A stretch of 38,903 bases of DNA from a virus (Duplodnaviria > Caudoviricetes). Under the pieces are notes generated by a model. It was given only the letters and a program-made list of their open reading frames with translations, searched no databases and was not told the DNA's origin. Below, piece after piece: positions 14,007 through 38,859 of this stretch. The stretch's first letter is position 1. Each line of letters begins with the position of its first letter. A program made the translations under genes and the position numbers. The stretch covers positions 1-38,903 of IMG/VR virus record IMGVR_UViG_3300027205_000004; one strand, written 5' to 3'.

Positions 14007-14899
14007 TGGCGTACTCGGCTTGGGCTAGTTCAACTGCCTACAGCGTTGGCAATATTGTCCGCGCCAGCAGTTTGCAGGCATCCGGCCTCGTCTTCCAATG
14101 CACCACGGCTGGCACCAGTTCCAGCACCCAACCCGCGTGGCCAACTGACATCGGCAGCACCATCACGGATGGCACGGTTGTCTGGACGGCGATTAGCAGC
14201 GTCTACGAGGAGCTGGCCGCACTGGCACCAAGCGCCATCATTGAACTGTTCGAAATGACGCTGGACACCACCCTGCACGGCAGCAGTGACACCTACCGCT
14301 GGCACAACGGCTGCAACGCCAATGTCACCGGCAACATCACATGGAACGGCAACGCCTATACCCGTCTACCCGTCAAGGCCGAAGGCTTTGAATACACCAA
14401 CACAGGCACCCTGCCGCGCCCCACGCTGACCATCAGCAACCTAGATGGCACCATGACCACGCTGCTGTTGCTGGTCAACGCCACCACACCCGGTAACGAC
14501 CTCGGTGGCGCCACGGTCAAGAGGATCCGCACCCTGAAAAAATACCTTGACGGCGAAACCGCCGCAGACCCACATGCCAAGTTCCCCGATGAGATTTGGT
14601 ACGTGGACCGCAAGTCAAGCGAAAACCGCGATTCGGTGAGCTTCGAACTAGCCAGCAAATTCGACCTCGCTGGCGTGATGATTCCCAAGCGCCAAATTAT
14701 TGCCAACATCTGCCAGTGGAAATACCGCAGCACCGAGTGCGGCTACACCGGCAGCAATTATTACGACACCAATGACAATGCTGTTGGAACATTGGCAGAA
14801 GATAAATGCGGTAAGCGGATTGGCTCGTGCAAATTGCGGTTTGGCGAAAACTCTGAGTTGCCCTTCGGCTCATTCCCAAGTGCGGGTTTAATTCAATGA
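14006..14899 (+). CDS. Minor tail protein, lambda gpL-like, with extra N-terminal domain
   Basis: RPTLTISN, RIRT..KYLD, CQW.YR..ECGY, DKCGK...C.LRFG, FG.FP. Confidence 0.92.
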   Translation: MAYSAWASSTAYSVGNIVRASSLQASGLVFQCTTAGTSSSTQPAWPTDIGSTITDGTVVWTAISSVYEELAALAPSAIIELFEMTLDTTLHGSSDTYRWHNGCNANVTGNITWNGNAYTRLPVKAEGFEYTNTGTLPRPTLTISNLDGTMTTLLLLVNATTPGNDLGGATVKRIRTLKKYLDGETAADPHAKFPDEIWYVDRKSSENRDSVSFELASKFDLAGVMIPKRQIIANICQWKYRSTECGYTGSNYYDTNDNAVGTLAEDKCGKRIGSCKLRFGENSELPFGSFPSAGLIQ

Positions 14900-15609: not shown

Positions 15610-16273
15610 GGTCTACGGCGCACTCCGCAAAAAGCTGGGTCAGTGCCGCTTCCAATTTGAAGCCGACACGCCAGCGCAGGCGCTCAAGGCACTTTGCGTC
15701 AATTTTCCCGGTCTTGAAAAGTGGCTGATTGATAGCGAACAGGACGGTGTTGGCTATCGTGTAACAATCGGAAAAGAAAAGGTCACCGAACAAAACGCCG
15801 TGTTGATTGCGGCTCCATTTAGTGAGCGGGAAGTTTTTAGTATTACGCCTGTAATTGCTGGTGCTGGCGATGGCGCGGGACAGATTTTGGCGGGTGTTGG
15901 CCTGATCGCCTTGGCCATTGTTACCGGAGGCATTGCATCTGCTGGTGTGGCCTTGGGAGGTTTTATGGGAATCGGAACAATCGGAACGGCTGTTGTTGGT
16001 ATAGGCGCCAGCCTTGTCCTTGGCGGCATTGCACAAGCTCTTTCGCCTGCACCGGTTAATTCGACTTCAACTTTTGAGCGCGGACGTGAGGCGGCAAAGC
16101 TGGAATCATTTAGCTTTAGCGGCATTGTGAACACGTCCAAACAGGGATTGCCCGTACCGATTGCCTACGGTCGATTGTTTGTGGGTTCCGCTGTAATTTC
16201 TAGCGGCCTTGATGTGGAGTTCAGCGGCAATGCTGGTAAATCCACTGGCGAAGTATTTGCGAGCAAGGGTTGA
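15596..16273 (+). CDS. Tail assembly protein, lambda gpI-like
   Basis: Ubiquitin-like N-terminus, Gly-rich hydrophobic segment, NT..QG.PVP..YG. Confidence 0.9.
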   Translation: MKVVKVYGALRKKLGQCRFQFEADTPAQALKALCVNFPGLEKWLIDSEQDGVGYRVTIGKEKVTEQNAVLIAAPFSEREVFSITPVIAGAGDGAGQILAGVGLIALAIVTGGIASAGVALGGFMGIGTIGTAVVGIGASLVLGGIAQALSPAPVNSTSTFERGREAAKLESFSFSGIVNTSKQGLPVPIAYGRLFVGSAVISSGLDVEFSGNAGKSTGEVFASKG

Positions 16274-19200
16274 TGACAAAAAGAACAGCTCTACTCCAAG
16301 GTTCTGGTGGCGGCGGCGGTGGAGGCTGCTTCCTTGGCCATACGCTCGTCGCGGTTCCAAACGGCCAACGCCGAATTGATGAACTGCAATCGGGCGATCT
16401 GGTTCTGAGCTTTGACCATACCGGCGAAGTCCACGAAGCCAAAATCCTCAAAGTCCACGAACACGAAGGCGAGCGCGTTATCCGCTACACGCTCTGGGGC
16501 GGACAGCATCTTGATGCCACCCCTAACCACTGGGTTCTAAACCAGTTCAACGCCTTCGTCGAAATTGACACGTTTGGCGCTGATGATTGCCTTGTTGACG
16601 CCAACGGCCACCTCCGTCCCGTCGTCGGCAAGACCGAATTCTGCACTGGCACGGTCTACAACCTGACCGTCGAAGGCCACCACACCTTCATCGCCGGCGG
16701 AATCCGCGTCCACAATGCCGGTCTTGGCCTTGGTATTGCTGGTGCTGGTGGCGGTGGTGGCGGTGGCGGCAAGGGCGGTGGTGGCGGCAGAAGGACGCCT
16801 TATGAGGCAGATGATTCGCTGCAGTCCACCCAATATGCAAGTGTTCTAGATCTTATTTGCGAAGGTGAAATCCAAGGTCTAGATAACGGCGCCAAAAGTA
16901 TCTATTTAGATGATACCCCGATTGAAGATGCGGCAGGAAATAAAAACTTTCGCGGCTATCAAGTTGTTACCAGAAATGGCACGCAAAATCAAACTATTAT
17001 CGGTGCTGATCTAAATGCAACAGAATCTGAAAATGGCGTCAGCGTCCAGCTTTTTGCATCCACACCTGTAACTCGTCAAATCACGAATACAGCAGTAGAT
17101 CGAGTCCGCGTGACGGTTAACGTTCCAGCACTGCAAATTTTGCAAGACGATGGCGACATTGTTGGCCACAGCGTATCGCTAAAAATTGAAACCCAATACA
17201 ATTCCGGCGGTTACACAGAAGTCATTAGCGACACAATTAGCGGTAAAACAGGCAATTTATATCAGCGCGATTACATGCTGGCGCTGAATGGCGCATTTCC
17301 AGTTGACATCCGAGTTACAAGAACAAGTGGCGATGAAAGCTCCGCTAAGCGCCAAAATGACATCTACTGGTCTAGCTACACAGAAATTATTGACGAAAAG
17401 TTGCGTTATCCAAACAGCGCCCTTGTTGGCCTGCGGTTTGATTCGCGCAACTTCAATAATATCCCCAAGCGTAAATATCTAATCCGTGGAGCAAAAATAC
17501 AGTTGCCCAGCAACGCAACCGTTGATACCACTACACACCTAGGGCGCGTAACCTACGCCGGCGTCTGGGACGGCACTTTTGGCGCTGCGACTTGGTGCAA
17601 CGACCCCGCCTGGTGCCTGTGGGATTTATTGATCAGCACTCGTTACGGCGCCGGAATACCAGCCAGTAACTTAGATCGTTATGACTTTTATGCGATTAGT
17701 CAGTATTGCAACGAGTTGGTCGAAAACGGCAAAGGTGGCTTGGAGCCTCGCTTCTCATGCAACCTGCTGATTAACAGCCGCGACGAGGTTTACAACGTCA
17801 TCCAAGAAATGACCAGCCTGTTCCGTGGCATCGCCTATTACGGCGCCGGTTCGCTGGTACTGCAGCAGGACAAGCCAACTGATTCGCAATATCTGCTGGG
17901 ACCAAGCAACGTTGTTGATGGCGTTTTTAATTACAGCGGATCATCTCAAAAGGCTAGACACAGCGTCGCCACTGTTGCCTGGCAGTCCTACGACACCTTG
18001 GGCGAAGTTGAATACGAATACGTTGAAGATGCGGAAGCTGTAGCCAAATACGGCATCATTAATAAAGACATCAAGGCGCTGGGTTGTTACAGCCAAGGCC
18101 AAGCACATCGGGCTGGTAAATGGGCGCTACTGAGCGAACAGAATCTGACCGAAACTATCACCTTTTCGGTCTCAATCGACAGCGGCATCATCCTGCGCCC
18201 CGGCATGGTGATCGACATTGCCGATCCGCTTAAAGCCGGATCACGCCGCAGCGGTCGCGTTAGTTCTGCCACCACAACCGCCATCACTGTTGACAGCAGC
18301 ACCAATCTCACCGTCAACCTGTCGAACAGCCCGACAATTTCGGTGTTGATGCCAACCGGCTTGGTGGAAACCAAAACCATCAGCAGCATTTCTGGCACAA
18401 CCATCAACGTCAGCAGCGCGTTCAGCGAAGCACCCAACGCTAACGCTATCTGGCTAATCCAAACCAGCGACATCGAAGCCCAGCAATACCGCGTGTTGAA
18501 TGTCGCAGAATCCGAAGATGGTATTTACGGCGTAACTGCGCTGCAGTACAACAGCACGATTTACGACGCGATTGAAAGCAATAACAAATTACTGCGCCGA
18601 GACATTAGTAACCTGTCTGCCAAGCCCGATACAGTTGGCAACATTTCTGGATCGGAATACATTTATCAAGATGGGCAAAATGTATTTTCCGGTTTTGATT
18701 TAAGTTGGATCAGCCCTAGACAACGTGTTAGCGAATTTCGGGTTGACTATCGAATTGATAATGATAACTGGAAGCAGGTTGTCAGCACCTCTCCTTCGGT
18801 GCAAATTAAACAAACACGCCCCGGCATTTTATATATTCAAATAACGGCGGCAAACTACCTCAATAAAATTAGCGACATTGCATCAGCCCAATTCACGCTT
18901 GTTGGTAAAACTGCTGTTCCCGGCAATGTTCAAAATCTGACGTTTGAAGCCATCAACAACAACTCCGGTCGCCTGCGCTGGGACGAAACCGTTGATCTTG
19001 ACGTAAAAGTTGGCGGCAAAATTCATATTCGCCACAGCAGCTTGACCGACGGCACGGCTACTTGGAGCAACAGCGTTGACCTAATCCCCGCCAAATCCGG
19101 CAGCTCAACAGAGGCAATCATTCCGCTTGTAGAAGGCGAAGTGCTGGTGAAATTTGAAGATGACGGTGGGCGGCAATCAGCCAGCGAAACCAGCGTCATT

Positions 19201-20071: not shown

Positions 20072-21877
20072 ATGGCTCAACACGATTATGTGATTGCTAA
20101 CGGCACCGGCGCCGCCGTCCGTTCCGATCTCAACAACGGCCTTTCCGCAATCGTCACCCAGAACAGCGGAGCGACCGAGCCGGCAACCACTTACGCCTTC
20201 ATGCGCTGGGCGGATACGACCGCTGGCGTGATGAAAATGCGGAACAGCGCCAACAACGCTTGGATCACGCTGTACCAGTTGGATGGCGAGTGGACCAACA
20301 TTGCCTTTGAAAACGGCACCGCTGCTGCCCCGTCGATCTACTTCAAGGACAGTGGCACCGACACAGGCTTCTATTCGCCCGGCGCCAACCAAGTCGGAAT
20401 TTCAACGGGCGGCACGGCTCGCCTGACCATCGACTCCAACGGCAACGTCGATATTGACAGCAACACGCTCTACGTTGATGCCACCAATAACAGGGTAGGT
20501 CTGGGGGTTAGTGACCCTGGGCAAAAGTTAGTTATTGGTGGCGGCACAAATGGACGTACCCGAATCAAAGTTGATTCAGGTTCTGGTAACTTTGGCAAGT
20601 TCGAGTTTTCGACTGATTCAGCTTTAACTACAAGTGCCGTTCAGGTAGCGGAGATTACGGCCAACATTACCGGGACAGGTCCGCTTACTTCAAGCCTGCA
20701 GTTTGCGACCAATAGCGGCAACTCGCTTAATACCGCAATGACGATAGATTCGTCACAGCGAGTAGGGATTGGCACTACTAGTCCTGCAAGACAGCTTGAT
20801 GTTAATAGTACTGCGATTTTTGACAGCAATGGCAACGGGTCCACTACTAGCCCGTCTATTGCGATTGGTTCTACAGGTACAGGTCTTTCTTACATTGGGA
20901 GTCAACAACTTGCTTTCCTTACAAACTCTGCCGAACGCGCCCGCATCGACAGCTCGGGACGCCTGTTAGTTGGCACGTCTACTGGTCGTAATGGTGGATA
21001 TGCGGATCCCGCTCAAGTACAAATTGAAGGGTTGAGTTACAATAGTGCCGCTCAAAGTATCATTATTGATTCCAATGATGGAAATGGTCCAAGTCTAAAT
21101 TTTGGCAAATCTCGTGGTACAAGTTTAAACTCCAATACCGTTGTTCAAAGCGGCGACAGGCTTGGTGTAATTGACTTTGCCGGAGCAGACGGAACTTCTC
21201 TAAAAAGAGGGGCAGTAATTGAAGCCTATGTAGACGGCACCCCCGGCGCCAGCGACATGCCTGGCCGCCTAGTGTTCTCCACTACCGCCGATGGAGCGAG
21301 CAGCCCGACGGAACGGATGAGGATAAATAACGGTGGTGGCGTGATGATAGGAACAACAAACGCCCAGACAGGAATCGGTGATCTAACGACAGTTACAGGT
21401 GTAGCTTTTAGCCCTGACGGCTGGGTTGGAGGATGCAGATCAAGCGAAGCCGCTGGCTATTTCACGCGAACAGGTACGGATGGCAGGGTAATCAACTTTT
21501 ACAAAGGAAGCACAGGTGTTGGCGGCATTTCTGTCACAACAACCGCAACCGCTTTTAATACTTCATCGGATTATCGCTTAAAAGAAAACATTATCAGCAT
21601 CTCAAATGCAATCGAAAGAGTTAAACAGCTAAATCCCTGCCGTTTTAATTTTATTGCTAACCCCGAGCAAACTGTCGATGGCTTTATTGCTCACGAAGCA
21701 CAGCAGGTCGTGCCTGAGGCAGTTGAAGGCACCAAAGATGAAGTCGATGAAAACGGCAAACCTATTTACCAAGGCATCGACCAGTCCAAACTGGTGCCGT
21801 TGCTGACCGCTGCGCTGCAGGAAGCGTTGGCTGAGATTGAGTCCCTGAAGGCTCGTGTTACCGCGCTAGAGCCATAA
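20072..21877 (+). CDS. Modular tail fibre with C-terminal intramolecular chaperone (peptidase S74)
   Basis: Repeated RVGIGT / ERARIDSSG / ERMRI linkers; TSSDYRLKENI, GFIAHE, IDQSKLVPLL. Confidence 0.92.
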   Translation: MAQHDYVIANGTGAAVRSDLNNGLSAIVTQNSGATEPATTYAFMRWADTTAGVMKMRNSANNAWITLYQLDGEWTNIAFENGTAAAPSIYFKDSGTDTGFYSPGANQVGISTGGTARLTIDSNGNVDIDSNTLYVDATNNRVGLGVSDPGQKLVIGGGTNGRTRIKVDSGSGNFGKFEFSTDSALTTSAVQVAEITANITGTGPLTSSLQFATNSGNSLNTAMTIDSSQRVGIGTTSPARQLDVNSTAIFDSNGNGSTTSPSIAIGSTGTGLSYIGSQQLAFLTNSAERARIDSSGRLLVGTSTGRNGGYADPAQVQIEGLSYNSAAQSIIIDSNDGNGPSLNFGKSRGTSLNSNTVVQSGDRLGVIDFAGADGTSLKRGAVIEAYVDGTPGASDMPGRLVFSTTADGASSPTERMRINNGGGVMIGTTNAQTGIGDLTTVTGVAFSPDGWVGGCRSSEAAGYFTRTGTDGRVINFYKGSTGVGGISVTTTATAFNTSSDYRLKENIISISNAIERVKQLNPCRFNFIANPEQTVDGFIAHEAQQVVPEAVEGTKDEVDENGKPIYQGIDQSKLVPLLTAALQEALAEIESLKARVTALEP

Positions 21878-21892
21878 GTCCTACTCGTTACT

Positions 21893-22036
21893 GTGCCTGA
21901 CGAAATCACACCGGAGGAAAACGAGCGGCGCTTCAGAGAATGTCTTCGCCTGATCAACAACGTCACCTACGAGCGACTGGTGGAGTTGATGGGCGAGGAG
22001 TTCCTTGAAGAGTATCGCCGTGTTGCTCGGCATTAA
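21893..22036 (+). CDS. 47-aa cassette protein (VPDEITPEENERRFRECL...), not in ORF track
   Basis: GTG starts 3 nt after the 21876 site; manual translation. Confidence 0.6.
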   Translation: MPDEITPEENERRFRECLRLINNVTYERLVELMGEEFLEEYRRVARH

Positions 22037-22113
22037 AAAGGGGCAGGATGTCACCCCTGCCCCTGTGCAACGGAATATCACAACCGTTGCGGTGCCTTGT
22101 CAGCCGAAGCACT
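22035..22113 (-). ncRNA. Putative three-hairpin small RNA ending in an intrinsic terminator
   Basis: -10-like TACCAT (22121-22126, minus strand); three adjacent stems; last stem followed by TTTTT. Confidence 0.5.
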
Positions 22114-22124
22114 GTAGCACATGG

Positions 22125-22193
22125 TATGGTGGTGGAGCGGCGCAGTGCTACCTGCCCGCCCCATGACCGCCGATTGGAGGATCGACGATGACC
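22125..22193 (+). promoter_or_regulatory. Promoter + two-hairpin structured leader, copy 1
   Basis: Aligns without gaps to 23236-23304, with compensatory stem changes. Confidence 0.7.
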
Positions 22194-22574
22194 CAAGATT
22201 ACAAGCACCCGATCACCTCACCGCTGGAATTAAGCGACGAGCAAGTGGGCGAATGGCTGATCGACGACGGCTACCCGTGGGACCCCTCGGAGCAAGCTGT
22301 CATCACCATTACCACCAACCGACTCAAGAATGTTGCCCGCCAAGCATTCCAAGCTGGTGCCGACCAAGAGCTGGAGGCGTGCCTCAGGCTGGTTGAAATC
22401 AATGCTGGTGAGGACGCTTATGACTTTGCTCGCTACATCCGCTCCGCCCGCCGCCCCAAGCCGCCAAGCTTGAAGGAGCAGGCGCTGGAAGCGCATAATC
22501 GGATGATGGCCGGAGAAGAAACGCAAGATGATTGGTCGATTGTCCGCCGCGCACTGGAGCAACTCGATGACTGA
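22188..22574 (+). CDS. Hypothetical phage protein
   Basis: GGAGG upstream; GADQELEAC and RRPKPPSLKEQAL motifs recalled from cyanophage small proteins. Confidence 0.75.
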   Translation: MTQDYKHPITSPLELSDEQVGEWLIDDGYPWDPSEQAVITITTNRLKNVARQAFQAGADQELEACLRLVEINAGEDAYDFARYIRSARRPKPPSLKEQALEAHNRMMAGEETQDDWSIVRRALEQLDD

Positions 22575-23031
22575 CTTCCGAGCGCTGTGCGCTGAGCTGC
22601 TGGCCGCACTGGAGAACGAAGGCTACGCCCACTGGTCTACCGCTCCAGACGAAGATGAGCTATGCCTACGCGCCCGCGCCGCCTTGGCCCAGCCCGAGCC
22701 GAAAGAGCCGACGGACGAGGAACTGCAAAAACTAGCTGGCATGTTCTTTACTTCCACTGAGTTCGGCTTTGTGGACTTTGCTCGCGCTGTCCTAGTCATT
22801 CCCGCTACTATGTCTGAACTTTCACCCCAAGCGCAAGCTGTCTGGGACGCCTACGGCACTTTGGCCGATCTTTATAACTGCGAAGTCACAGAGGCTGAAA
22901 TGCTTGCCGCCGCTCTTCGTACTGTGGCAGAACAATTTTATTTTGATTGGAACGGTATGTGCTGCGCTGAACACCTCAAAGAAATTGCCAGAGAACTCGA
23001 CGCCAGTGAGCCTGTAACCGAAGCCCAGTAG
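22567..23031 (+). CDS. Chimeric hypothetical protein (MTDFRALCAEL.. fused in frame to MSELSPQAQAV.. at 22810)
   Basis: Reads through the 22793 site; second ATG lies 3 nt after the site. Confidence 0.65.
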   Translation: MTDFRALCAELLAALENEGYAHWSTAPDEDELCLRARAALAQPEPKEPTDEELQKLAGMFFTSTEFGFVDFARAVLVIPATMSELSPQAQAVWDAYGTLADLYNCEVTEAEMLAAALRTVAEQFYFDWNGMCCAEHLKEIARELDASEPVTEAQ

Positions 23032-23046
23032 TCACCTTCCCTACCC

Positions 23047-23205
23047 ATGACGCGCTCCTTCTCGGAACTCACCAAAGATTTTGCCCCAGAGCGCCGGGAG
23101 CGCATTGAACAGCGCAAGGCGGAGATCCAAGAAGATCTTGTTGAATGTCCAGAGTGTTTCGCCTTGATTTACCCGAGCTGGCTTGAGATGGACGAGGACG
23201 AGTAG
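23047..23205 (+). CDS. 52-aa cassette protein (MTRSFSELTKDFAPERRERIEQRK...CPEC), not in ORF track
   Basis: Bounded exactly by the 23029 and 23203 sites; manual translation. Confidence 0.65.
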   Translation: MTRSFSELTKDFAPERRERIEQRKAEIQEDLVECPECFALIYPSWLEMDEDE

Positions 23206-23235
23206 TCATCCTCTGATCGAGGTCTGGCTCTGGTA

Positions 23236-23304
23236 TAAGATTGTGAGGTAGCGCAGCGCCAACTGCCTACCCCATGACCGCTCCACTGCTCTGGAACGAT
23301 GACC
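23236..23304 (+). promoter_or_regulatory. Promoter + two-hairpin structured leader, copy 2 (recombinase leader)
   Basis: -10-like TAAGAT; stems GGTAG/CTACC, GCAG/CTGC, TCCA/TGGA. Confidence 0.7.
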
Positions 23305-24159
23305 ACATCCTATTCGGTGTCCCAGCTTTGGGATGCCTTTGTCGCTGAGCGATCCATCTCGCTTTGCCCCACCAGCCTCACCTCCGACTACAGGCAGGTG
23401 ACCAAGTGGTTAAAGCGATGCCCGATCCAAGATCTGCAACAAGCACGCCAGGTGATGATCTGGGTGCTGGGGCAGAAACCTGTGCTGTCTTCACGTCGCG
23501 TCGCGATGTACACGAAAACGATGTATAAGTGGGCAGCGCAGGAAGACGTTGGTTACCTGAACCGCAATCCGCTTGCGAGCTTCAAGATGCCAAAGGCGCC
23601 TCAACGCGATGAAGAAATCATCGTGATTCCGCGCAATGAAATCGGCTTGGTGCTGGCCGCTTTGGAGGCAAAACTGACCTATCGCACGGTCAACTGGTCG
23701 GCCTACACCGAGTTCATGCTTCAGACCGCGATGCGCACCGGCGAGGTTCGTGCTGCTCGCTGGGATGATATCAAGGACGGGAAGATCCTTGTTCATCAGA
23801 ACTGGACTTTGACCCATGGATTGAAGGACAGCACCAAGACGAACAAAAAACGGTGGGTGCCGTTGAACGGCAAGTGCCAAGCGATCCTTGGGTCTCTACC
23901 GAAGGATTCCGAATTTATCTTCCCGTGGGATCGACTTGCGTTTCAGAGTTACTTCCGCAAGAAGCTTCAGCCGCTACATCAGGTTGGACTGATCTCTCAC
24001 CTTTACCGACCTTACGACTGCAGGCACACCGCAATCAGCCATTGGATTGAGGCTGGCATCCCAGTACCTCAGGTGGCGGCTTGGGCAGGCAACACCAGCG
24101 AGGTGATCTTCAAACATTATTGCAATACCACAAAGGAGTACGAAATGCCGGAGATTTGA
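23299..24159 (+). CDS. Tyrosine recombinase (286 aa, no arm-binding domain)
   Basis: MRTGE (R), TKT (K), YDCRHT (HxxR variant), AGNT, KHY (catalytic Y). Confidence 0.92.
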   Translation: MTTSYSVSQLWDAFVAERSISLCPTSLTSDYRQVTKWLKRCPIQDLQQARQVMIWVLGQKPVLSSRRVAMYTKTMYKWAAQEDVGYLNRNPLASFKMPKAPQRDEEIIVIPRNEIGLVLAALEAKLTYRTVNWSAYTEFMLQTAMRTGEVRAARWDDIKDGKILVHQNWTLTHGLKDSTKTNKKRWVPLNGKCQAILGSLPKDSEFIFPWDRLAFQSYFRKKLQPLHQVGLISHLYRPYDCRHTAISHWIEAGIPVPQVAAWAGNTSEVIFKHYCNTTKEYEMPEI

Positions 24160-24186
24160 TAGATTGACGCCACGGCACAGAAATCC

Positions 24187-24507
24187 ATGCCCAGCGCTAC
24201 CCCTAGCACCACCTTCACCTGGCGGATCGCCAACCTCGAAAGAGAGACCGCCGATGGATTCGTTCTGACGGCACACTGGACGCTCTCGGCTGAAGATGGC
24301 ACCTACGCCAGCTCGGCCTATGGGTCCGTCGGCTTTGAGCGCCCCGACAAACTCATTCCGTACAACCAGTTAACGGAAGAACAGGTGGTGCAATGGGTGA
24401 AGGACAACTTCGGCGCTGAGAAGGTGACCGAGATCGAAGGCGCCCTGCAGCATCAACTTGATGAACAGCGGCATCCGACGCAGGCTGCAGGTGTGCCGTG
24501 GCAGTAA
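24187..24507 (+). CDS. Tail fibre-associated small protein
   Basis: TW.I..LER...DG.V..AHW, IPY..LTEE.V..WV, GVPW; family usually found directly after fibre genes. Confidence 0.7.
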   Translation: MPSATPSTTFTWRIANLERETADGFVLTAHWTLSAEDGTYASSAYGSVGFERPDKLIPYNQLTEEQVVQWVKDNFGAEKVTEIEGALQHQLDEQRHPTQAAGVPWQ

Positions 24508-35412: not shown

Positions 35413-36216
35413 ATGATCGAGATCGTATTCAAGCCTGAAGAGATTATCGGCAAGATCACTGAGCTGCAGAAGGTGCAGATCCCACGCGCCAGTGCAATTG
35501 CCCTAAATCAAGCCGTCTACGCCGCATCACAGGAGCTGAAGTCGCAAGCCAAAACAATCTTCAACAACCCTGTCCCTTTCACCGTCAATTCGTTTCTCTA
35601 CAAAAAGCCTCAACAAGTCGGCGACAGCATCGAAGCCAAGATTTTTATTCGTGATCAGGCTCCCAAGGGCAATGCACCTGCTGAATACCTGTTGCCTCAG
35701 ATTTATGGTGGCAGGCATTTCCCAACGCGCTTCCAAGGCGCTTTGCTGAACACTGTTGTTCAAAACGCAACGGGCAGAAATGTGCAGGTTGGCCAGCGCG
35801 GCAAAATCATGATCCCAAATCTGCGTAGTCCTAAAACACGCGTCAACCAATACGGAAATATGTCACCAGGACAGTTCACGCAGATCCTGTCTGCTCTGAA
35901 AGGCAACATCAGCTCAGCAGACATCTACGGCGTCAGGCAGCGTGGTGAAGTACCAGTCAACGATCAGGCGCTCAGCAAGTACATCTACCTCGATGAAGAA
36001 AGCCTGTACGAACCGTATTTCCGTCGTCGCTTTACCAATTCACCCAAGCCTGGTATTTACTTCGTCGACAGACGCACCGCTGGCACGCGTTACTACCGCG
36101 TCATGACGGAAAGCAAAATACCAACCTACACCGGCAAATTTCCCTTCAGAGATATTGCAGAGAATGCTGCAAGACAACGCTTCAATGAAGTTTTTTCGTC
36201 AATCATTTTGCGTTGA
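35413..36216 (+). CDS. Putative neck/tail completion protein (gpZ-like)
   Basis: AGGAGG RBS; A.ALN, F.NP.PFT.NS, YL.PQI.GG.R, N.YGN motifs. Confidence 0.6.
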   Translation: MIEIVFKPEEIIGKITELQKVQIPRASAIALNQAVYAASQELKSQAKTIFNNPVPFTVNSFLYKKPQQVGDSIEAKIFIRDQAPKGNAPAEYLLPQIYGGRHFPTRFQGALLNTVVQNATGRNVQVGQRGKIMIPNLRSPKTRVNQYGNMSPGQFTQILSALKGNISSADIYGVRQRGEVPVNDQALSKYIYLDEESLYEPYFRRRFTNSPKPGIYFVDRRTAGTRYYRVMTESKIPTYTGKFPFRDIAENAARQRFNEVFSSIILR

Positions 36217-36337
36217 AGTTCTTGCGGTAGGTCGGTTTAAAGGGCGAAGTTCTTGCGAGATGTCGGTTTAAAAGGCCAAGTTCTTGCGGGAGGTCGGTTT
36301 AAAGGGCTATGTACCGGATCGGGGTCGGTTTAGGGTG
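36215..36337. repeat. 31-bp tandem repeat, 3 good copies + 1 degenerate
   Basis: AAGTTCTTGCGnnnnGTCGGTTTAAArGGC; units start at 36215, 36246, 36277, 36308. Confidence 0.9.
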
Positions 36338-36341
36338 AAAA

Positions 36342-36531
36342 TGAGAATCGCTCTCAAAGGGTACGTTTGTACTACTGATAATGAGAATCATTCTCAAAAT
36401 GCGGCAAGGCGCATAGAATGCGTGATAATGAGAATCATTCTCAGCAGCCAAGCGGCCACCTAGCCTCCTTGCAATTGCGAATCATTCGCAACAACAGAAG
36501 GCGCACCCGTCCTAGGTGAGAATCGCCGCGA
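36342..36531. promoter_or_regulatory. Cluster of TGAGAATnATTCTCA palindromes (Fur-box-like)
   Basis: Copies at 36342, 36382, 36429, 36476, 36517. Confidence 0.7.
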
Positions 36532-38733: not shown

Positions 38734-38859
38734 TGAGAATGCGTCGCAATTGCAGCGACCCTAGGGGCAGCCGTGGCGGGTGAGAATGAGAATCAGTCGC
38801 AGGAATTGGCGAGAATGAGAACCGTTCTCACGGTGAGACAGAAATGAGAATGATTTTCA
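38734..38859. promoter_or_regulatory. Second cluster of TGAGAATnATTCTCA-like palindromes
   Basis: Copies at 38734, 38787, 38816, 38845. Confidence 0.65.

Follow-up and report, generated by a model that had tools for sequence, protein, structure and literature searches.

In IS10, a short cis-antisense RNA, RNA-OUT, prevents translation initiation on a mobile-element gene. The literature compared here comprises excerpts of PMC1891008, PMC4147584, PMC3753616, PMC4705826, PMC5415839, PMC12197685, PMC6157547, PMC9978351 and PMC2864571. According to these excerpts, Sar of phage P22, also a short cis-antisense RNA, keeps translation of a phage gene from initiating (PMC12197685), and SymR, whose promoter is embedded in the symE reading frame, represses translation (PMC1891008, PMC4147584). 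Start-codon antisense RNAs have been known one gene at a time (SymR, Sar and RNA-OUT), whereas here one design recurs on at least 17 protein clusters in phage and metagenome loci. We describe it from a Caudoviricetes record of 38,903 nucleotides (IMGVR_UViG_3300027205_000004; the window is this whole stretch). The window carries two similar sequences at the 5' ends of genes, copy 1 at 22125-22193 and copy 2 at 23236-23304, which a sequence-only reading had taken for twin structured leaders, one of them on a recombinase gene. In our judgement, each twin is probably a module of ~80 bp with facing -10 boxes, making a cis-antisense RNA predicted to repress the translation of its own gene. What the sequence itself shows is the fold, its strand bias, the two hexamers at set distances and the occurrence before unrelated genes.

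The two copies align without gaps at an offset of 1111, with 44 of 69 positions identical. Both -10 hexamers, stem 1, stem 2 and the remaining sequence statements made about the twins were correct, including an ATG 25 nt before each start codon (22163 versus 22188, and 23274 versus 23299). The sequence CCCCATGACCGC had been called invariant; in the window it occurs exactly only at the two twin sites, and it varies across the family. Searched against the 38.9-kb record, a covariance model scored the twins at 93 and 87 bits, both being members of its training set, and returned no third copy.

Family members were found with pattern scans, a structure descriptor and this covariance model, which was built on 21 members. 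The 125 model-match rows correspond to 72 distinct cores in phage and metagenome loci, a lower bound on family size. Loose pattern scans gave mostly chance matches, and one of the 125 rows (L543:540-631) was discarded as a false match because it has no anchor. The covariation of the stems, first noted between the twins, holds in the larger alignment. In 30 diverse members aligned with MAFFT, 96.2% of 504 cells pair and 13 of 17 pairs change on both sides; these counts are of sequences, not independent events, and refer to a hand-drawn structure. None of 500 shuffles reaches the score, in a control that ignores relatedness, and slid partners pair in 31-55%. In the 21-member seed set, 98.2% of 441 cells pair.

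Read on the minus strand, the module consists of hairpin A (8-12 pairs), a CA linker and hairpin B (~12 pairs). In copy 1, hairpin A (22166-22189, minus strand; the former stem 2, extended) has 9 pairs, two of them U·G wobbles, and starts where the antisense RNA is predicted to start (22189), while its loop is complementary to the GGAGG ribosome-binding site (22176-22180); a single-sequence fold favours a shorter form of this hairpin. Hairpin B of copy 1 (22133-22163, minus strand; the former stem 1, extended) has 12 pairs, one bulged G and a 6-nt loop. In copy 2, hairpin A (23277-23300, minus strand) also has 9 pairs and begins at the predicted antisense start (23300), with identical minimum-energy and centroid structures, and hairpin B (23244-23274, minus strand) has the bulged G and the loop UUGGCG. 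That the stems extend further and suit the minus strand better had been missed by the sequence-only reading.

Across 18 distinct arms of hairpin A, 38 stem pairs are G·U on the minus strand and none on the plus strand; across 30 distinct outer arms of hairpin B, the counts are 22 and 3. These pairs were counted at fixed stem positions and with a covariance model that favours such pairs. The seed set of 21, although chosen by plus-strand patterns, has minus-strand G·U in 65 of 441 cells. As RNA, the minus strand is the more stable in 68 of 68 cases (mean 9.9 kcal/mol). For the 30 diverse members, aligned with MAFFT, RNAalifold predicts 14 minus-strand pairs and no plus-strand pair, imperfect alignment lowering both counts. 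The predicted antisense RNAs of the twins have fold z scores of -4.04 and -4.08 (the latter for a 65-nt RNA of copy 2), and the predicted mRNA 5' ends have -1.31 and -0.61. Judged by these comparisons, the working fold most likely sits on the minus strand, opposite to the one first proposed. The proposal of a structured cis-regulatory RNA at gene 5' ends therefore survives as to conservation and covariation and changes strand. Antisense action had been named as one option among its mechanisms; it is the plus-strand leader fold that the strand evidence weakens. A conserved minus-strand peptide was also considered and rejected, being 28 aa long in copy 1 but reaching a stop at codon 3 in copy 2.

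The original model, in which two stems and an out-of-frame ATG in a plus-strand 5' leader would gate translation, now seems to us quite improbable. In its favour, the mRNA would still have a short 5' hairpin of 8 pairs, and stem 2 overlaps the ribosome-binding region; against this, the predicted mRNA folds are no better than shuffles by the z scores above, and such a leader does not explain a minus-strand -10 box embedded in the gene. The upstream ATG points in both directions. It is present in 34 of 72 copies, though early search patterns required one, and missing in the other 38; its spacing is 23-34 nt, and further members have GTG or CTG instead. Its frame is +1 in 28 of the 34, as the leader model would have it, but 0 in three and +2 in three, so that all three frames occur, and the conserved start codon and frame of an upstream-ORF (open reading frame) leader are not found across the 72 copies. 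As far as these sequences tell, the upstream ATG is mostly the complement of the linker and the base of hairpin A, and not a leader start.

Both strands of the module carry a candidate promoter. The sense -10 boxes are TATGGT in copy 1 (22125-22130, plus strand, with a TG extension at 22122-22123) and TAAGAT in copy 2 (23236-23241, plus strand). In 50 of 64 contexts across the family, the sense -10 box is a hexamer of the form YA...T that ends 10 nt ahead of the bulged base; a TG extension is present in 27 of 55. This position puts the predicted mRNA start four bases before the bulge, at ~22137 and ~23248. The outer 3-4 pairs of hairpin B lie upstream of that start and could therefore form only in the antisense RNA.

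A second, oppositely facing -10 box, overlooked before, lies within the coding sequence of each copy. It is TAATCT in copy 1 (22196-22201, minus strand), 6 nt before hairpin A and in codons 3-5 of the downstream gene, and TAGGAT in copy 2 (23307-23312, minus strand), by sequence register in codons 3-5 of the recombinase gene; we regard both as putative promoter elements. Among 28 distinct members that had been found without any -10 term, 25 have a TA...T hexamer 5-7 nt before hairpin A, compared with 11 of 977 background windows. The location in codons 3-5 forces a Tyr or Leu near residue 5 of unrelated proteins. Where the module is absent, the hexamer is present in 1 of 22 distinct recombinase starts and in 4 of 28 homologs of the gene at 22188, and these homologs mostly also lack the box-bearing Asp-Tyr codons. 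Seven of ten homologs of that gene with the module have the hexamer at the automatic start, and the other three have it when the start beside hairpin A is taken. In a second subfamily, hairpin A begins 3 nt deeper in the gene and the -10 box shifts with the hairpin and not with the ATG, as expected if the -10 box sets the antisense 5' end.

In the mechanism that we favour, an antisense RNA of 60 nt or longer would start at the first base of hairpin A (22189 and 23300), and the mRNA would start inside hairpin B (22137 and 23248), giving an overlap of 53 nt from the mRNA start to the start codon. The antisense RNA would pair over the 5' leader and the start codon, and the duplex would block translation initiation. 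Copy 2 is without a GGAGG-type site, so that its antisense RNA would have to block initiation by covering the start region. The antisense G·U pairs correspond to A·C mismatches in the mRNA, where the start region would stay weakly folded and, as long as no antisense RNA is bound, accessible to ribosomes. The hairpin B loops may make the first contact, helped by the bulged G, in the way described for antisense RNAs of plasmids. The copy 1 antisense RNA could run on to an intrinsic terminator at 22039-22064. The longest form predicted (22034-22189, minus strand, ~156 nt) would consist of the two-hairpin core, two hairpins and this terminator, with a fold z score of -4.45. A similar terminator lies at equal distance in three other loci (L018, L024 and L049). 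A sigma-70-like promoter is also predicted at 22103-22074 (minus strand), where a second tiny RNA is possible.

As the copies drift apart in sequence, each RNA would become selective for the gene that it precedes. The net pairing is ~-76 kcal/mol with the mRNA of the same copy and -19 or -26 kcal/mol with that of the twin, a difference that makes shared co-control unlikely and favours separate control, with some cross-pairing between twins possible. The sequence-only reading had proposed that one shared RNA co-controls the recombinase and the cassette genes. The weak pairing between twins, and a module found at only 9 of 80 recombinase loci, speak against this.

The predicted starts face each other, 53 nt apart. 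Such an arrangement could also act through transcriptional interference between the promoters, or the duplex could shield the mRNA from RNase E, in both cases with no translational repression. The excerpt of PMC5415839 names interference as a regulatory route and describes protective antisense RNAs in Prochlorococcus during phage infection, which lends this explanation some support. Interference, however, needs no conserved fold, yet the fold of the module covaries strongly. Moreover, the genes served include nucleases and recombinases, for which damping would be the expected need. We rate interference or protection as rather unlikely.

The details of the fold bear on another explanation. In hairpin A, the second pair is U·G in 29 of 30 members, the third is C-G in 30 of 30, and the fifth is usually a wobble that swaps between U·G and G·U. 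In hairpin B, the descriptor with the bulged G fits 71 of 72 copies, despite turnover of the flanking stem, while the loops vary and include GCAA-, GGAA- and GAGA-containing ones. These features would suit an antisense RNA whose fold is read by a phage or host protein, as a decoy, scaffold or shared switch, with mRNA pairing secondary. If true, this would restore the earlier co-control idea on the other strand. It is hard to reconcile with a promoter geometry that is fixed and always covers the start codon, and with the absence of a conserved partner gene among the 17 protein clusters, and we consider it unlikely.

The proteins downstream of the module fall into these 17 single-linkage clusters, which include tyrosine recombinases, HNH/NUMOD4 nucleases (HNH_3 of Pfam is matched by all five proteins of that cluster) and small unknown proteins. 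A search of 151 cyanobacterial genomes gave one clear match. In 151 genomes from the family of that match, 8 matches above 30 bits were found in 6 genomes, some on chromosome-length contigs; weaker host matches, below 30 bits, resembled noise when inspected and were left out of the counts. The 8 host copies precede two resolvases, two ribbon-helix-helix genes, one integrase, one HNH nuclease and two unknowns, and a broader model added two copies preceding broken ribbon-helix-helix-like genes. In four host genomes (L594, L678, L692 and L702), the module stands before small ribbon-helix-helix (RHH_5) genes, two of them broken. The copy in L678 lies ~400 nt from a tRNA gene, which suggests an integrated element. 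Another host locus, L592 (G001:51394-51481), is a divergent second copy, 11 kb from the first, that stands before an endonuclease VII-like gene and has a different hairpin A.

The module has no counterpart in the resources searched. Rfam gave no match near its cut-off for 21800-24300, for either window copy or for the 8 host loci, and among 11 member loci only one weak SymR match. A blastn search of isolated phages with copy 1 returned only three chance-level rows, and the Synechococcus phage S-LBS1 has no copy of the module. In full-text literature searches, no paper among those listed described the element in its title or the start of its abstract. For a collection of 10,000 candidate phage RNAs (PMC10690425), four supplements contained no match to six motif words each, and the other supplements may hold the family. 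Taken together, the sequence comparisons indicate a real, covarying module without an Rfam match.

Among the 80 recombinase loci, four of which are cut within 60 nt of the gene start, the nine with the module at the gene start include three that encode the window's own protein, and recombinases with 91-92% identity lack it. By this comparison, the module is not part of the recombinase gene and is not specific to recombinases. Many recombinases 85-93% identical to that of the window (L008-L031 and L078) have neither promoter nor leader, the gene starting no more than a few bases from a junction box, and other recombinase loci among the relatives bear full TTGACA-17-TANNNT promoters. The expression signals of the recombinase gene are, on these alignments, swapped freely among relatives.

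Integron attC sites recombine through a bottom strand with an extrahelical G. A similar role as a single-stranded DNA substrate of the neighbouring recombinase was weighed here, since the module is mobile, is located in a mosaic region and folds on one strand into a hairpin with a bulged G, and since in DNA, too, the minus strand is the more stable one in 67 of 68 cases. The strand advantage in DNA is small, however (mean 2.2 kcal/mol), and 71 of the 80 recombinase loci have no module at the gene start, nor does S-LBS1 have one at all. An attC-like site would be one long bottom-strand hairpin, tied to the recombinase and placed at cassette borders; here there are two short hairpins, the borders fall elsewhere, flanking sequence switches outside the hairpins and not inside them, and the promoter geometry is left unexplained. 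We regard this explanation as very improbable.

Several observations weigh against an antisense RNA that represses translation. Members share ancestry, so the counts overstate independent events. The near-invariant U·G, C-G and bulged G exceed the needs of plain base-pairing. On the promoter side, there is no antisense -35 box (5/6 matches in 2 of 61), the antisense TG extension is present in 1 of 61, and a promoter scan called none of the four promoters. The 8 host copies keep -11A and -7T, but -12T in one only. Many cyanobacterial promoters have a -10 box alone. The family has no fixed terminator: one lies within 200 nt in only 9 of 57 members, no more than on the other strand (8). The available RNA run (X1) consists of contigs, without strand or ends, and 13% of sampled words are present in it. 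That the effect is repression rather than stabilisation is inferred by analogy. Finally, the Rfam SymR model (RF01809) matches one member, L022, on the predicted strand and span, at a weak 26.7 bits versus a gathering cut-off of 61, and matches neither window copy nor any of the 8 host loci. Our first model (R1) found SymR as its best match in a 3.5-kb E. coli locus, chosen after the Rfam hint, at 13.3 bits; the broader model scores E. coli SymR at only 10.4 bits, with an E value of 0.45.

The twin region of the window is flanked by a tail-fibre gene (20072-21877) and a DUF7936 gene. The first gene behind copy 1 (22188-22574, plus strand) encodes a 128-aa protein of unknown function (phrog_32006; no Pfam match). 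It is followed by two small open reading frames (22567-23031 and 23047-23205, plus strand) that have no match in PHROG or Pfam and that, from their spacing, are likely co-transcribed with the copy 1 gene. Behind copy 2 stands the tyrosine recombinase gene (23299-24159, plus strand; 286 aa; phrog_1; PF00589 at 47 bits, cut-off 27.1). The recombinase is 79.9% identical to the S-LBS1 integrase, and this similarity makes a cyanobacterial host likely for the window virus. According to the excerpt of PMC6157547, lysogeny was not demonstrated for S-LBS1.

The window contains seven TAG-N9-CTA boxes, five of them within 20.7-23.1 kb (20763, 20967, 21270, 22793 and 23029) and the others at 14026 and 15540. 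In 69 distinct recombinase loci, there are 170 such boxes in 177 kb upstream and 28 in 287 kb downstream, and other spacers give 8-58 upstream. Boxes lie within the tail-fibre gene as well as at the ends of genes, at points where the upstream sequence switches between relatives. Contigs of RNA run X1 diverge from the window near 21877 and 23021. Further along, 36216-36490 and 38781-38830 hold three 31-bp-spaced repeats followed by six copies of the 21-bp near-palindrome TGATAATGAGAATCATTCTCA, which look origin- or operator-like. At 16270-16730, the N-terminal part of a 1255-aa tail protein has, by eye, an intein/Hint-like segment between glycine runs (CFLG...VHN).

If a translational brake of this kind acts as predicted, it would be a general means by which the mobile DNA of cyanobacteria keeps recombinases and nucleases in check, and it would give a handle on whether S-LBS1-like integrases are switched. 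It would also explain the shared N-terminal Tyr or Leu codons of unrelated proteins. It would supply cyanobacterial engineering with ready-made orthogonal parts. More tentatively, and with more doubt than belief, one may imagine an antisense brake that is portable and self-tuning: a small promoter-RNA-promoter part, perhaps distantly related to SymR, which cyanophages and their hosts insert before any risky gene (tyrosine and serine recombinases, HNH nucleases, small regulators and unknown phage proteins). Its stems would drift in step, several copies in parallel would avoid cross-talk, and its fixed wobble-and-bulge signature would be read by a shared protein. Such parts would make up a natural library of orthogonal translation switches for cyanobacteria.

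The module resembles Sar and RNA-OUT as a short cis-antisense RNA directed against translation initiation and differs from them in that each of those serves one gene; Rfam found no match to either in the stretches searched. With CfrI and asRNA1 it has in common that they are antisense RNAs on cyanobacterial mobile DNA. In the excerpts of PMC12197685 and PMC9978351, CfrI of phage S-PM2 is ~225 nt long, lies at the psbA 3' end and adjoins a homing endonuclease gene, whereas asRNA1 of plasmid pSYSA is ~153 nt long and starts at the stop codon; by these descriptions, both are without the start-codon, two-hairpin layout. CopA/CopT of R1 and the Inc RNA of ColIb-P9 share with the module, as far as the excerpts describe them, the UUGGCG loop and an upper-stem bulge, which in CopA is reported to be needed for fast binding (PMC3753616). 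Unlike these, the module does not stand before plasmid replication genes, and no leader peptide is conserved.

SymR comes closest in layout. The sequence of the E. coli symE/symR locus contains a -10 box and two hairpins, has the loop UUGGCG and places the start 3 nt beyond the ATG. In both systems the antisense -10 box lies inside the first codons, and the RNA starts at or 3 nt past the ATG, here as predicted from sequence geometry. A 5' hairpin with U·G wobbles covers the start region, and the second hairpin is of the form GUG-UUGGCG-CAC. Within the family, the hairpin B loop is exactly UUGGCG in 11 of 71 copies and one change away in most 6-nt loops. The module core is shorter (~60 versus 77 nt) and is reused on many unrelated genes, several times per genome; unlike SymR, it has a bulged G, located 3-5 pairs below the loop. 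None of the 24 + 9 proteins scanned with Pfam, a subset of the downstream proteins together with flanking genes, belongs to the SymE family. Given a score below the cut-off and a shared layout, the module would work like SymR without being a member of its family, and it is possibly a distant relative by common descent.
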